Source: a virus (lineage: Duplodnaviria > Caudoviricetes). From it: 64,000 nt of DNA. The stretch is from positions 160,001 to 224,000 of IMG/VR virus record IMGVR_UViG_3300049144_000095; one strand, given 5' to 3'. Each line of letters begins with the position of its first letter. Position 1 is the stretch's first letter. The position numbers and the translations under genes are program-made. Positions 60,169-64,000 of the stretch are shown in pieces. The notes under the pieces were generated by a model. That model had not been told where the DNA came from, did not search any database, and saw only the letters and a list, made by a program, of their open reading frames with translations.

Positions 60169-60501
60169 ATGTTCCTGTATTACGTTGCACCTGTCGTGCG
60201 CACCGACGCAGGCATGACCGTCAACCCCCTGAGCGGAGCCTGCGTGCTGGCCGGTTCGCCGCACGAGGGTCATCGATCCCTCGGGCTGCCCGACGCGGGC
60301 GAGATGTTCGCCGTCTGGGTGTTCGGTCAGACCGACTCTGCCGAGCGCCCCGAGCTGACCCTGTGGCGGGCGGGTGAAATCTGCTCACAGATGCCACCCC
60401 ACAGGGTCTACGCCTGTCTCGGCGGTGGCGCCTTGTGTGAACTGAACATCGATCCGCTGCTCGATGTGCGTGTGGAGGCCGGACGTGCTGGTGCCGACTG
60501 A
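60169..60501 (+). CDS. hypothetical protein
   Basis: GGAGG RBS; overlaps the start of the ATPase gene. Confidence 0.55.
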   Translation: MFLYYVAPVVRTDAGMTVNPLSGACVLAGSPHEGHRSLGLPDAGEMFAVWVFGQTDSAERPELTLWRAGEICSQMPPHRVYACLGGGALCELNIDPLLDVRVEAGRAGAD

Positions 60502-61804
60502 CGAAGAGCAGCGCCTACTGGAATGCCTGTCAACGGAGTGGTGGTCGAAGAACGCCACCGCTCCGGTCGTTCGAGATGTTGTCGTGCTCAAATCGGAGAT
60601 GACACGGGCCGGTGTTGAGGCACACCTGAAGATCACCGGAAACAGCACCAACGCGACACGTCAGAAGCTGGAGGACGGTGTCGACTTCTTGCGCGTCCTG
60701 CTGGATGTCGAAGATGACCATCCACTGGTGGTTCTCCCCAACGGCCGAGCCTCACAGGTGAAAATCGCCATCCGTACCCGACGGGTCACTGAGGAGATGG
60801 ACATGTTCTGGCATCCGGGCCGCGTCGGGCTGGGTGTCGACAGCGTGACCGGGGATGTTGTCGACATCCCCTTCCAGAAGCAGCTCCAGGTGTCCGGCGC
60901 CAAGGGGTCCGGCAAGTCCTGGGCCATGCGCCCGATGATGGCGCGTGCCGTCATTCTGCCCGAGATCAGCCCGGTTTTCGCCGACCCCAAGATCGTCGAA
61001 GGTACCTGGTGGGAGGGGCTGATGCCGGTCTACTACCCGGGTGAGTTCGAAGAGATGCTGGACTCGGCGACCGACGACATGCACACCCGCGCCGAGCTGA
61101 TGCGGAAGGAGAGGTCGACCGTCTGGCGCCCCGAGTTCGGCCCCTACCGGATCTACATCGTGGATGAAGGCCGCGAGTTTCTGGGCAACCTCCGGCGAAT
61201 CGACTTGGTCAACCAGAAGCTGGCCCGTGCCAGGCGGCGCAGCGAAGAGGAGAGCGAGGTCGAGCTGTCTCCCGGGGACGGCGAGTGCCTGGACAAGCTG
61301 CTACGCATCTCCAGCATGGGTCGAGCCTGGGGCGTCTTCCTCTGGTGGGCCACGCAGTACCCGATCGTTTCTGGGAAGAATCCCGGCATCGATACCAATG
61401 TCGACGCGAATGCCGACTACCGCTTCTCTCTTCGCGTGAGCAAGCCTGGGCATGCCGCCGTGGCGCTGGGCGAAGATGCGGACTACGGGCCTCACCTGCT
61501 CACGGCGGACGACAGGAACCGTGGCTTCGGTTATCTCGGCGGATACGGACCGTCCCTGATTCAGACTTGGACCGTGACCGACGAGATGATCTCACTTCTG
61601 GGGTATCCCGATCACGGGCGCGGAAAGTGGCCCCGCGACATCGCCCTCAAGGCGATTCAGGAACAGCCGGGCGCCGTATGGACGCCGGATCTCCTGACGT
61701 CGCGAGTCGGCTGCGGCCGAGTACAGGCGAGCAGGTTCCTGCGAACCTTCTCACGTGAGGGGCTGATGACTGCCGACCGAGACGCTTTCCGCCTGGTCGT
61801 GTGA
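60485..61804 (+). CDS. FtsK/SpoIIIE (TraB-like) P-loop ATPase
   Basis: VSGAKGSGKS Walker A, FADPK, IYIVDEG Walker B, SMGRAWG...WATQYP, C-terminal wHTH. Confidence 0.85.
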   Translation: MLVPTDEEQRLLECLSTEWWSKNATAPVVRDVVVLKSEMTRAGVEAHLKITGNSTNATRQKLEDGVDFLRVLLDVEDDHPLVVLPNGRASQVKIAIRTRRVTEEMDMFWHPGRVGLGVDSVTGDVVDIPFQKQLQVSGAKGSGKSWAMRPMMARAVILPEISPVFADPKIVEGTWWEGLMPVYYPGEFEEMLDSATDDMHTRAELMRKERSTVWRPEFGPYRIYIVDEGREFLGNLRRIDLVNQKLARARRRSEEESEVELSPGDGECLDKLLRISSMGRAWGVFLWWATQYPIVSGKNPGIDTNVDANADYRFSLRVSKPGHAAVALGEDADYGPHLLTADDRNRGFGYLGGYGPSLIQTWTVTDEMISLLGYPDHGRGKWPRDIALKAIQEQPGAVWTPDLLTSRVGCGRVQASRFLRTFSREGLMTADRDAFRLVV

Positions 61805-61984: not shown

Positions 61985-62059
61985 TGGCGAATAGCTCAGC
62001 TCGGTCAGAGCGCGGAACTGATAATTCCGAGGTCGAAGGTTCAAGTCCTTCTTCGCCAA
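61985..62059 (+). tRNA. tRNA-Ile(GAT)
   Basis: TGGCGAA/TTCGCCA acceptor, CGGAA-CTGATAA-TTCCG anticodon arm, TTCAAGT T loop. Confidence 0.9.
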
Positions 62060-62290
62060 CTGAGCCAGGGGGGTAGCGCTGGGCACGGCGCACCTCCTGG
62101 CTCACTCTCTCTCCCCGCTGCACCTGGTACGGGCGGTGCAGCGGGGAGACGCCAAGCGAACGGCGCAAGGAGCAGGTCGCATCGAGATGGGTGGTTCGTC
62201 GGAGCAGGTCAGGGGGTTTCGGCCCGACGGCCAAGCGGTCAACTAACCACCATCGTCCATAGCTTGACGGTCGAACTGAGAGTAAATACC

Positions 62291-62320
62291 TTGCGGCACT
62301 ACCGCAGGATCTTGTACTGT
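62291..62320 (+). promoter_or_regulatory. promoter of the Y RNA array
   Basis: TTGCGG-N18-TACTGT ending 8 nt before the first RNA stem. Confidence 0.6.
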
Positions 62321-62328
62321 TTTTCTTA

Positions 62329-62404
62329 GCACCCGGTGTGAAGGCAACGGTTACTTCTTCTGCAAAAAGAACCCACACCGTAGCCGATTCGGTTAACCGG
62401 GGGC
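62329..62404 (+). ncRNA. short Y RNA-like unit 1 (Ro-binding stem only)
   Basis: GCACCCGG-TGTG...GCAACGGT-TACTTC...ACCGTAGC...GGTTAA-CCGGGGGC. Confidence 0.7.
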
Positions 62405-62421
62405 GTCAACTTCACAGTGGT

Positions 62422-62568
62422 TCTGGAGTCGTTCGGTGTGATAGTGACGGTTACTTCACCTCTGGAGTGAGTAGACCGGTTCAACTCCGGCGACGGCGAA
62501 AGCCCGGTAGTGTAACGGCAGCACGCTAACGTACACCGTTGCGATTTGGTTAACCGGACGACCCCAGA
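62422..62568 (+). ncRNA. YrlA-like Y RNA unit 2 with permuted tRNA domain
   Basis: 15-bp terminal stem, GGTGTG/TTAACC bulged helix, T arm CCGG-TTCAACT-CCGG, GGC-GAAA-GCC, D arm TAGTGTAACGGCAGCAC. Confidence 0.8.
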
Positions 62569-62583
62569 GTCACTGTGATGTGC

Positions 62584-62739
62584 GCAGACAAACCGGCTGG
62601 TGTGTAAGCATCAGTTACTTCCGGTAATCTCTAGGTCGTTGGTTCAAGTCCAACCCGGAGCTTAAACACTTCGGTAGCTCAGTTGGCAGAGCAAGAGACA
62701 AATTGTCACTGGTGCGACTTGGTTAACCAGCCGGTCTGC
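62584..62739 (+). ncRNA. YrlA-like Y RNA unit 3 with permuted tRNA domain
   Basis: CCGGCTGG/CCAGCCGG, TCTCT/AGAGA, AGGTC variable loop, T arm GTTGG-TTCAAGT-CCAAC, closed acceptor CCGGAG/CTTCGG, D arm TAGCTCAGTTGGCAGAGC. Confidence 0.85.
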
Positions 62740-62752
62740 CTGCGTACATGAG

Positions 62753-62781
62753 ATGCCCCCTCCCTGGAGGGGGCATTTTTT
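62753..62781 (+). terminator. intrinsic terminator after the Y RNA array
   Basis: ATGCCCCCTCC-CT-GGAGGGGGCAT followed by a T run. Confidence 0.8.
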
Positions 62782-62802
62782 GTTTGACCGGAAAGGGGAG
62801 AA

Positions 62803-63018
62803 ATGAAAGCAGTCGGTGTCAGATATACGAACATCGACGCCCCCGAGAGTAACGGGTGCGACGGGTGCCTTGCCCTGAAGAACGTAAGGGCCTTCTGTGC
62901 GGATCACCGAGAAGGTCGCCCCTGTCTCTGGTGCCTCGACAGGGGCTACGCCGTGAGGGAAAACCGCTGGTTGCCGTGCGGATGCCGAACGGATCGAGTC
63001 AACGAAGAGGAGAACTGA
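62803..63018 (+). CDS. small Cys-rich (zinc-binding-like) protein
   Basis: CDGC, CLWCLDRG, CGC; GGAAAGGGGAG RBS; directly upstream of the Ro60 gene. Confidence 0.6.
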   Translation: MKAVGVRYTNIDAPESNGCDGCLALKNVRAFCADHREGRPCLWCLDRGYAVRENRWLPCGCRTDRVNEEEN

Positions 63019-63021
63019 ACC

Positions 63022-64000
63022 ATGACCCGTTTCAACATCAAGACAACCCAGCCGAAGGCGAAGGCTCCGGCCATCGGCACCTCTGTGAACCACGAGGGCG
63101 GCACCGGCTACACGCTCCCGGAGAAGGGTGAGCTGTTCAATCTCGCCACCGTCAACTTCGTCGGACAGGACACCTTCTATGAGAAGGGCGTCGACCGGGA
63201 CGCACGCTACAACGGGCTCGTTGAGAGCGTCGCAGTCGACGACTGGTCCTGGTTGCGTGGCATGCTGACATGGCTGCGCTCCGACGCCAACATCCGCACC
63301 GCCTCCCTCACAGGCGCCGCGCACGCCGTGCACCGCCGCCTGGCAGCCGGTCAGTACGACGGCAACGCCGAACTGGTCGACTCCGTGATCCAGCGCGCCG
63401 ATGAGGTCGGCGAGTTCGCCGTGTACTGGCTCGCCACCTTCAAGGGCACCATGCCGAAGCCGGTCAAGAAGGGCCTGGCGATGGCGATGGTGCGCCTCTA
63501 CACGGCCCGCAACGCCCTGAAGTGGGACTCGGGGGCGCGCGGCATGCGTTTCGCCGACGTCATCAACCTCGTCCACCCGAAGCCGCGCGACTCCGAGCAG
63601 GAGGCGCTGTGGAAGTACCTGCTCGACGAGCGCGGGCACAAGGACGGCAGCATCGACACGGTGCCGATGATCGCCGCTCGCAAGCGCTGGTACGACGAGT
63701 TCTCCGACGAGCAGAAGCTGGCCTCGCTCCGCGACGGCTCGGCGTTCCGCGACTGCGGTCTCACGTGGGAGAACGCGTCGTCCGAGCTGAAGGCCCGAGT
63801 CGGCGAGAAGGTGCTATGGGAAGCGATGGCCTCGCACCTGCCCTACATGGCCGCCATACGCAACCTGCGAAACATGGACCAGGCGGGCATCTCGTACACC
63901 ACGGCCAGCAAGCTGGCGGCGCGCATCGCAGACCCGGCGGAGGTGGCCAAGTTCCGGCAGCTTCCGTACCGGTTCCTGTCCGCCTACCTGGCGGCTCCGA
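63022..64000 (+). CDS. rsr: Ro60/Rsr TROVE-domain RNA-binding protein (3' truncated by window)
   Basis: NHEGG.GY...ELF.L...F.G.DTFYE, LR...NIRT, IQRADE, PKPVKKGLA, LKWD...FADVINLVHPKP, LPYMAAIRNLRN. Confidence 0.92.
   Translation, partial: MTRFNIKTTQPKAKAPAIGTSVNHEGGTGYTLPEKGELFNLATVNFVGQDTFYEKGVDRDARYNGLVESVAVDDWSWLRGMLTWLRSDANIRTASLTGAAHAVHRRLAAGQYDGNAELVDSVIQRADEVGEFAVYWLATFKGTMPKPVKKGLAMAMVRLYTARNALKWDSGARGMRFADVINLVHPKPRDSEQEALWKYLLDERGHKDGSIDTVPMIAARKRWYDEFSDEQKLASLRDGSAFRDCGLTWENASSELKARVGEKVLWEAMASHLPYMAAIRNLRNMDQAGISYTTASKLAARIADPAEVAKFRQLPYRFLSAYLAAP

Follow-up and report, generated by a model that had tools for sequence, protein, structure and literature searches.

A probable Y RNA array in front of a phage Ro60 gene

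The window studied here, a 64,000-nucleotide stretch of DNA corresponding to bases 160001-224000 of the 251-kb virus record IMGVR_UViG_3300049144_000095, carries a gene for a Ro60 protein, and we find that this gene is preceded by three structured units that most probably represent an array of YrlA-type Y RNAs, serving as RNA partners of the Ro60 that the phage itself encodes; we put the probability of this reading at roughly 85%. The record is judged complete. Its closest cultured relatives are the large Streptomyces phages Satis, Kradal, Quantum and EhyElimayoE (~76% DNA identity over the array stretch), and the Streptomyces phage Frankenweenie is a more distant relative than this group. The sequencing runs containing the stretch are soil metagenome DNA, and two of them may derive from the source sample; no RNA run is listed among them. 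The Y-like units (62329-62750) and the Ro60 gene (from 63022) are located on the same, plus strand, at less than the ~4 kb distance that belongs to the definition of YrlA. Unless noted otherwise, coordinates are those of the window and features are on its plus strand.

An initial annotation of this stretch, which relied on inspection of the DNA letters, had proposed Y RNA-like genes of the YrlA type beside a TROVE gene, and both Pfam and the covariance models described below bear this out. The protein in question (536 amino acids; 63022-64000, the gene extending beyond the window as far as what would be position 64632) matches the Pfam family TROVE (PF05731) with 57.1 bits against a cut-off of 23, and phrog_850 ('RNA-binding protein') over residues 20-529 (E 2.4e-43). 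The match of its C-terminal part to VWA_2 is weak (19.7 bits, below the cut-off of 27), and a DxSxS-type, metal-ion-dependent adhesion site-like motif, DTSAS, is present at the expected place. The closest solved chains are those of the Ro60 protein of the Thermus phage phiLo (9L5Y/9KOP; E 6.6e-22, residues 18-455), and the homologues of the relatives are annotated as 'Ro-like RNA binding protein'.

Three units with a common handle and different heads

The 471-nt stretch upstream of Ro60 folds with a z-score of -6.75 (none of 100 shuffled sequences was as good) into three stem-closed units, each independent of the others, with a terminator behind them. Common to the three is a handle that consists of a terminal stem (P1), an internal loop with GGUGUG on its 5' and UGGUUAACC on its 3' strand, an 8-bp helix (P2) and the sequence UACUUC. 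In the DNA, GGTGTG starts at positions 62335, 62435 and 62599, GGTTAACC at 62391, 62548 and 62721, and TACTTC at 62352, 62452 and 62616; these motifs, the 8-bp helices, the three units, the promoter-like sequence and the terminator are all present, as the initial annotation had listed them. P2 contains one A.A mismatch in unit 1; in units 2 and 3 all of its positions pair, some of them as G.U.

Unit 1 (62329-62404), the short type, is delineated by its fold, its conservation and the covariance models, and its length of 76 nt agrees with the size first proposed for it. Its folded form begins with a 2+6-bp terminal stem (62329-62337/62396-62404), continues through the handle loop (GUGAAG, 62338-62343, and 62385-62395), P2 (62344-62351/62377-62384) and UACUUC (62352-62357), and ends in a 4-bp apical hairpin (62358-62371) without a tRNA-like domain. 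Unit 1 is thus a Ro-locus RNA with a handle stem and a simple hairpin head, the design of the YrlB/Yrn2 type; this likeness is one of design only, with no curated sequence family behind it.

Units 2 (62412-62578) and 3 (62578-62750), as defined by folding and covariance models and, for unit 3, by Rfam and covariation, are closed by long P1 stems of ~25 bp each that abut one another. With these terminal stems complete, their lengths are ~167 and ~172 nt, not the ~147 and ~156 nt initially estimated. Both carry a T arm, a closed acceptor stem, the dinucleotide UA and a D arm, a module that unit 1 lacks, as had been predicted and as is now seen in folds and in the family alignment. In unit 2, the handle (GGUGUG at 62435, UGGUUAACC at 62547), P2 (62444-62451/62535-62542) and UACUUC (62452) are followed by an anticodon-arm-like hairpin of 5 bp with the 7-nt loop CUCUGGA (62455-62471), which precedes the T arm (62476-62490), a short GAAA-capped acceptor remnant (62491-62507), UA (62508-62509) and the D arm (62510-62524; GUGU-AACGGCA-GCAC). 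Unit 3 has the classical YrlA layout. Its handle (GGUGUG at 62599, UGGUUAACC at 62720), P2 (62608-62615/62708-62715) and UACUUC (62616) lead to an anticodon-like stem (62628-62632/62694-62698) with the variable loop AGGUC, and this stem in turn frames the T arm (62638-62654; GUUGG-UUCAAGU-CCAAC), a closed 6-bp acceptor stem (62655-62674), UA (62675-62676) and the D arm (62677-62692; GCUC-AGUUGGCA-GAGC). The YrlA order of modules (T stem-loop, closed acceptor, UA, D stem-loop, anticodon-like stem) is therefore present in full in unit 3, present with a shortened acceptor stem in unit 2, and absent from unit 1.

Conservation and covariation of the array

The three-unit array, in the same order and together with the promoter-like hexamers and the terminator, is found in Satis, Frankenweenie and two further related phage loci (L004 and L005); unit 1 is conserved in these four relatives. 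Among the five orthologues of unit 3, 28 of the 53 predicted base pairs show compensatory changes, and such changes are also seen in the long P1 of unit 2. For wider comparisons, we built covariance models from the unit 3 orthologues (R1) and from unit 1 (R2). MAFFT misregistered the units of Frankenweenie and of the L006 type; the models were instead derived from well-aligned seeds, and the realignment was left to Infernal. R1 finds unit 2 with 62.5 bits (E 9e-13) and unit 1 with 34 bits (E 8.5e-6), and R2 recovers units 2 (35.7 bits) and 3, matching them over the handle and spanning a large insert. In the entire 251-kb genome there is no further full-length R1 match beyond units 1-3, and in the searches with both models handle-bearing units are confined to the Ro locus.

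We then searched ~20 other viral contigs and seven Streptomyces/Kitasatospora chromosomal loci, all of which had been fetched through their Ro gene. Within this collection, full-length R1 matches are present on the Ro strand, a few hundred bases from Ro, in almost all of the viral contigs, and R1 and R2 together place one to three units on the Ro strand beside Ro60 in ~20 phage contigs and in six of the seven chromosomal loci. A scan for the motif ([G/A][G/A/U]UG[C/U]G, helix, UACUUC) yields two to five units per phage Ro locus. Short units detected by R2 stand beside Ro in many loci (equivalents occur in L006-L018, L020, L024 and L027), and folding of the phage Ro loci reveals short hairpin-type, T-arm-only and full tRNA-like units side by side. 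On the chromosomes, where the Ro protein is ~41% identical, five of the seven loci possess three upstream units in the order long-short-long with the same handle (at ~2000-2460 of L027-L033); L032 has one unit and L030 none. Multi-unit arrays are hence the rule at such Ro loci and not a peculiarity of this phage.

The initial annotation had pointed to the co-variation of the helices within the array, and had proposed that the pairing should be conserved upstream of related TROVE genes; compensatory changes in the unit 3 orthologues and in both family alignments substantiate this. In the R1 family alignment (A7; 28 sequences), 94.6% of the cells are paired, compared with 37-45% when the pairing partners are slid by one to three columns; 35 of 38 pairs show compensatory changes, and none of 500 shuffles reaches the observed values. 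The corresponding figures for the R2 handle alignment are 91.9% paired (30-45% after sliding) and 16 compensatory pairs out of 20, again with none of 500 shuffles as high. Taken over the homologous loci, pairing is kept in 92-95% of cells versus 30-45% in the slid controls. The alignment also contains the tRNA tertiary signature of YrlA, namely G18G19, a UUC-type T loop and a covarying Levitt pair 15:48, the feature from which Chen et al. (2014; PMC4201824) had argued that YrlA adopts a tRNA fold. This pair is G:C in 14 and A:U in 11 of the 28 units. Unit 3 has G15:C48; in unit 2 of the window the combination is A:A (position 48 is an A), and in its orthologues A:U. The dinucleotide UA precedes the D arm in 27 of the 28 aligned units.

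The Ro-type handle

In vertebrate Y RNAs the strand contacted by Ro reads GGUCCGA, and the motif of YrlA RNAs is GNCGAA(N0-1)G (both quoted in PMC4201824). The 5' strand of the handle described here reads GGUGUGA in this phage; Satis and most of the phage and chromosomal units have GGUGCGA, Frankenweenie has GGAGCG, and L009 has GGUCCG. The G in place of a C had been singled out as a special variant of the bulge. This view we abandon: GGUGCGA or GAUGCGA is the consensus in nearly all aligned phage and Streptomyces/Kitasatospora units, so that the G is the rule of the whole branch, and what is peculiar to the lineage of this phage and its two closest relatives is a change from C to U at the next base, which gives GGUGUG. 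The motifs of the proposed GGTGTG helix are present in all three units, but an asymmetric internal loop (5' GYGNA, 3' approximately UUGGUUAA) describes them better than a bulged helix does. A simple bulged helix of the kind GGUC(C)GA/UUGACC was considered and dropped, and we speak of an internal loop because no single pairing register is kept across the units.

The 3' strand of the handle differs by lineage (UGGUUAACC, UGUUGGCC, UUGAUCUC, UUUUUCUA or GCGAAUC). Within one genome, all units carry one variant of both handle strands, and these variants differ between lineages. Such a pattern would be expected if a single co-evolving cognate protein had to accommodate every unit of its genome. The YUAY landmark of YrlA is present as UUAC in units 1-3.

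Relation to the Rfam families and to tRNA annotations

The search with the Rfam YrlA model (RF02553) suggested by the initial annotation did detect unit 3, with 39.1 bits (E 8.7e-7), but the gathering score of 69 is not reached, and for units 1 and 2 no Rfam family, YrlA and Y_RNA included, gives a match at E<=10. At the same limit, unit 1 of Satis matches neither family, and Y_RNA matches none of the units of the window. When gathering thresholds are applied, Rfam finds only tRNAs, both in the window and in 20 related loci. The missed gathering score and the lack of matches for units 1 and 2 weigh against our reading, as does the fact that the published 5' motif GNCGAA(N0-1)G is merely approximated by the sequences found here: GGUGUGAAG, GGUGUGAUAG and GGUGUGUAAG in the three units and GGUGCGAAG in Satis are near to it and not identical. 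However, the units of the Streptomyces and Kitasatospora chromosomes likewise reach just 34-44 bits with the YrlA model. The Rfam threshold thus misses the whole Streptomyces/actinophage branch, and falling short of the gathering score is therefore no argument against homology.

In the alignment produced by cmscan, the first helix of the YrlA model is laid on P2 of unit 3, and the second helix of the model is left unpaired. The position of the YUAY landmark, CUAC in the model and UUAC here, suggests a different correspondence, in which the second YrlA helix would equal P2, and the first helix (with GGCGAAUG) would equal the inner end of P1 together with the GGUGYGAAG loop.

Neither ARAGORN nor the Rfam tRNA model calls a tRNA at the array. 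In Frankenweenie, an annotated 91-nt 'tRNA-Pro(tgg)' (L002, 3500-3590) spans the 5' half of unit 3, i.e., the handle and the T arm, and is apparently a Y-like RNA mistaken for a tRNA. In Satis and its close relatives, the equivalent gap of 520 nt carries no annotation, and the units are thus unannotated in the GenBank entries of the relatives.

A promoter-like site, a terminator and the proposed path to the RNAs

A promoter-like site (TTGCGG, 62291-62296; 18-nt spacer; TACTGT, 62315-62320) ends 8 nt before unit 1, and a primary 5' end would therefore coincide with the foot of the unit 1 stem. The initial annotation called this site a promoter. Its hexamers are conserved in five phages (TTGCG and GTAnTnT), but a scan with the sigma-70 consensus does not call the site, which counts against our reading. 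The pattern has a single match in the 251-kb genome and two to four matches in Satis and in Frankenweenie, compared with none in a reversed control, which lends weak support to the idea that it might constitute a class of promoters. In relatives, the spacer contains an inverted repeat, GATCCC-N5-GGGATC (L001, 2997-3026; same site in L002 and L004), which is degenerate in the window and is possibly the site of a regulator.

The strong intrinsic terminator at 62750-62786 consists of a 13-bp G+C-rich stem (62750-62779) with the loop CTGG, followed by a T tract, and each of the five phages has a stem-loop with a T tract in this position. A cysteine-rich open reading frame (ORF) of 71 amino acids (62803-63018) has its ATG just 16 nt beyond the T tract; it has the Shine-Dalgarno-like sequence AAGGGGAG and contains CxxC pairs of a zinc-ribbon-like kind; its stop codon is located 3 nt before the start of Ro60. 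The distance from terminator to Ro is ~25-35 nt in Satis and Frankenweenie and ~75 nt in L005. This close spacing of terminator, ORF and Ro most likely makes Ro expression dependent on read-through from the array promoter. The array had been described as a transcription unit of its own; the promoter-like site and the terminator agree with this, but Ro has no room for its own promoter, so that read-through is probable. The array and Ro60 thus probably form one operon with an internal attenuating terminator, in which the RNAs would be cut out of the leader. Two such arrangements are documented: in Mycobacterium smegmatis, YrlA and YrlB are encoded upstream of rsr and are cut from one precursor to give stable Rsr-bound RNAs, and in Deinococcus radiodurans a polycistronic precursor with tRNA-Asp, Yrn2 and Yrn1 is made upstream of rsr (PMC4201824).

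We propose the following path. One transcript would start at ~62328 at the conserved promoter-like site, and host RNases would cut and trim it into three stem-closed RNAs. The majority of transcripts would end at the 62750-62786 terminator, and a read-through fraction would carry the small ORF and Ro60. The handle shared by the RNAs (terminal stem, GGUGYGA/UUGGUUAA loop, 8-bp helix, UACUUC) would be the counterpart of the known Ro-binding module of Y RNAs, and the heads would differ: a small hairpin in unit 1, a permuted tRNA retaining an anticodon-arm-like hairpin in unit 2, and in unit 3 the classical tRNA-like domain of YrlA, with the anticodon stem running into the handle. By analogy with Deinococcus, Salmonella and phiLo, these heads would, in the infected cell, couple or gate Ro60 to PNPase, tRNA-binding enzymes or similar host factors. 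The initial annotation had thought of RNAs that tether different effectors or act as decoys for RNases; such roles are conjectural. The stability of Y RNAs usually depends on Ro.

An anticodon-loop-like hairpin in half of the tRNA-like units

The element that follows UACUUC was named the V (variable) arm by Chen et al. (2014; PMC4201824). In 16 of 33 tRNA-like units, this place is taken by a hairpin whose stem has 4 bp or more and whose loop has 7 nt, and in 15 of these 16 hairpins the loop reads [Y/A]U-NNN-R-A, the signature of an anticodon loop, which occurs in 0.5% of shuffled controls. Such a hairpin is present in unit 2 and absent from unit 3; equivalents exist in L001, L002, L006, L008, L010, L015, L018, L023, L024, L027, L028, L031 and L033. 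The loop triplets vary between units (CUG, GGA, GUU, GCU, UGU, GAU, UCC and others). The signature would make unit-2-type RNAs nearly complete permuted tRNAs, and it is consistent with the model of a dimeric-tRNA origin that Wang et al. (2018; 10.1101/312249) cite.

A more far-reaching proposal can be attached to this observation, although we regard it as rather unlikely: unit-2-type RNAs would be complete circularly permuted tRNAs mounted on the Ro60 handle, comprising a mimic of the anticodon arm with the loop YU-NNN-RA, a T arm, a capped acceptor and a D arm, and the three heads would couple Ro60 to the surveillance or repair of damaged tRNAs, for instance as bait or sensor for host anticodon nucleases. 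The nearby enzymes that can be cited for it are an RNA ligase in the relative L004 and a Thg1-like protein. If this were true, the Ro60/Y RNA array would be a counter-defence module and not a general adaptor for RNA decay.

Alternative explanations

Expression of Ro60 apparently passes through the structured region, since the gap that follows the terminator, up to the next ORF or to Ro, leaves no room for a promoter, either here or in Satis and Frankenweenie. The region could on these grounds be a cis-acting leader of the Ro60 operon that sets the level of Ro60 and gives rise to no stable trans-acting small RNAs. We consider this very unlikely as the sole explanation, because units of the same design are found downstream of Ro in L013, the number of units varies from two to five per locus, and the covariation of tRNA tertiary pairs, for which a leader has no need, is maintained; moreover, the comparable upstream units of M. 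smegmatis are processed to stable Rsr-bound RNAs (PMC4201824). A role as leader and one as source of Y RNAs are compatible with each other and are not exclusive.

A different view would dissociate the units from Ro60 altogether and take them for tRNA mimics, e.g., decoys or substrates for host nucleases that target tRNAs or for tRNA enzymes, whose position next to Ro60 merely reflects a tRNA-rich neighbourhood. Phage Ro loci are indeed often embedded in tRNA arrays, unit 2 keeps its anticodon-arm-like hairpin, and the tRNA operon of the same genome contains a related element: on the minus strand between tRNA-Phe and tRNA-Asn (15771-15908), two tandem permuted tRNA-like modules comprise a T arm, a tetraloop-capped acceptor, a D arm and a 5-bp closing stem, and have no Ro-type handle. 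R1 matches one of them (29.8 bits), and solely with the tRNA-like part of the model (positions 38-110). Because of these handle-less modules, tRNA-like heads can evidently exist without a Ro handle, a point that speaks against our interpretation. Nevertheless, we deem this explanation decidedly unlikely, given that a handle without any tRNA-like part is present in unit 1 and in many units of other loci, that the handle resembles the Ro-binding strand GGUCCGA (and is exactly GGUCCG in L009), that handle-bearing units occur genome-wide solely at the Ro locus, and that in nearly all phage and chromosomal loci fetched by Ro, units stand on the Ro strand no more than a few hundred bases away. As for degenerate tRNA genes or functionless chance hairpins, callers of the ARAGORN type can be fooled by such units, as the 'tRNA-Pro(tgg)' on unit 3 of Frankenweenie illustrates; yet no tRNA is called here by either tool, and the massive compensatory covariation across distant loci renders this explanation practically negligible. 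An array of Y RNAs that serve the phage Ro60 remains the reading that we prefer.

Genes and structures around the locus

In the order of the plus strand, the locus comprises an FtsK-like ORF (60464-61804), a tRNA-Ile gene (61985-62060), the structured stretch, the 71-amino-acid cysteine-rich ORF and Ro60. Directly after tRNA-Ile (62062-62150) there are two G+C-rich hairpins without T tracts, one of them with a 14-bp stem at 62111-62148; they may form the end of the tRNA transcript. On their 3' side, at ~62187-62246, lies an ORF of 19 codons with a Shine-Dalgarno-like AAGGAG. The 71-amino-acid ORF has no Pfam or PHROG family, and nothing stands at the equivalent position in Satis and L005. In L004, whose Ro is 91% identical, an RNA ligase gene (2144-2956; PF09414, 62 bits) is inserted between the array and Ro60. 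Downstream of Ro60 (genome positions 223000-236000, L026), the phage encodes an ATP-grasp protein of the Ter-operon type, a phage ProQ-C-like protein, a SNF2-family helicase, an HD-domain protein and a Thg1-like tRNA 5'-end enzyme.

Relation to known Ro60/Y RNA systems

The locus shares its overall plan with the YrlA/YrlB RNAs of Rsr in Salmonella, M. smegmatis and phages (PMC4201824; 10.1101/312249; RF02553). In both cases, the RNA genes stand beside Ro60 and on its strand, a 5'/3' stem carries a Ro-type motif near the 5' end, the YUAY element is present (UUAC here), and a tRNA-like RNA and a plain hairpin RNA are combined in one locus; the tRNA-like part consists of a T arm, a loop-closed acceptor stem, UA and a D arm with 15:48 covariation. 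Unlike the YrlA/YrlB pair, the phage has three units, two of them tRNA-like and of differing architecture, and its handle loop is conserved on both strands, with a 5' motif GGUGYGA instead of GNCGAA(N0-1)G. All three units also score below the Rfam YrlA threshold.

YrlA-like RNAs have been reported in 22 phages (PMC4201824). The Ro60 of phiLo is, as here, phage-encoded with Y-like RNA genes directly upstream; it binds the RNAs Yrl1 and Yrl2 and forms complexes with the host PNPase in vitro (PMC12135203; 9KOP, 9L5Y). By the published description, on which this comparison is founded, phiLo differs in having two RNAs of a stem-bulge-stem form with a CGAA motif and a host from another phylum. With Yrn1/Yrn2 of D. 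radiodurans and with the metazoan Y RNAs, the phage units have in common that both strands of the Ro-binding helix are recognizable; the Y RNA 5' strand GGUCCGA (as quoted in PMC4201824) and GGUGCGA of Satis are one base apart. The polycistronic precursor upstream of rsr in D. radiodurans is a further likeness to the phage array. In contrast to metazoan Y RNAs, the phage units have no Rfam Y_RNA match at E<=10, and Yrn1 has another arrangement of its T and D arms (PMC4201824).

Phage Ro60 proteins with Y RNAs, multiple Y RNAs per locus and polycistronic precursors have thus all been published, and because of this we regard the locus as a member of a known system and not as one of a new kind. 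Comparative sequence analysis strongly supports the view that the stretch is a real and hitherto unannotated array of YrlA-type Y RNAs beside a phage Ro60 gene. A family of large Streptomyces phages thereby gains RNA genes that had escaped annotation; the entries for Satis, Kradal, Quantum, EhyElimayoE and Frankenweenie leave the stretch blank or label part of it a tRNA. The comparison yields a clean and testable definition of the shared Ro handle, and the picture that emerges is one of arrays of two to five Y RNAs with exchangeable heads, both in phages and on the chromosomes of their likely host genera. With culturable Streptomyces phages, the role of a viral Ro60 particle could conveniently be studied.

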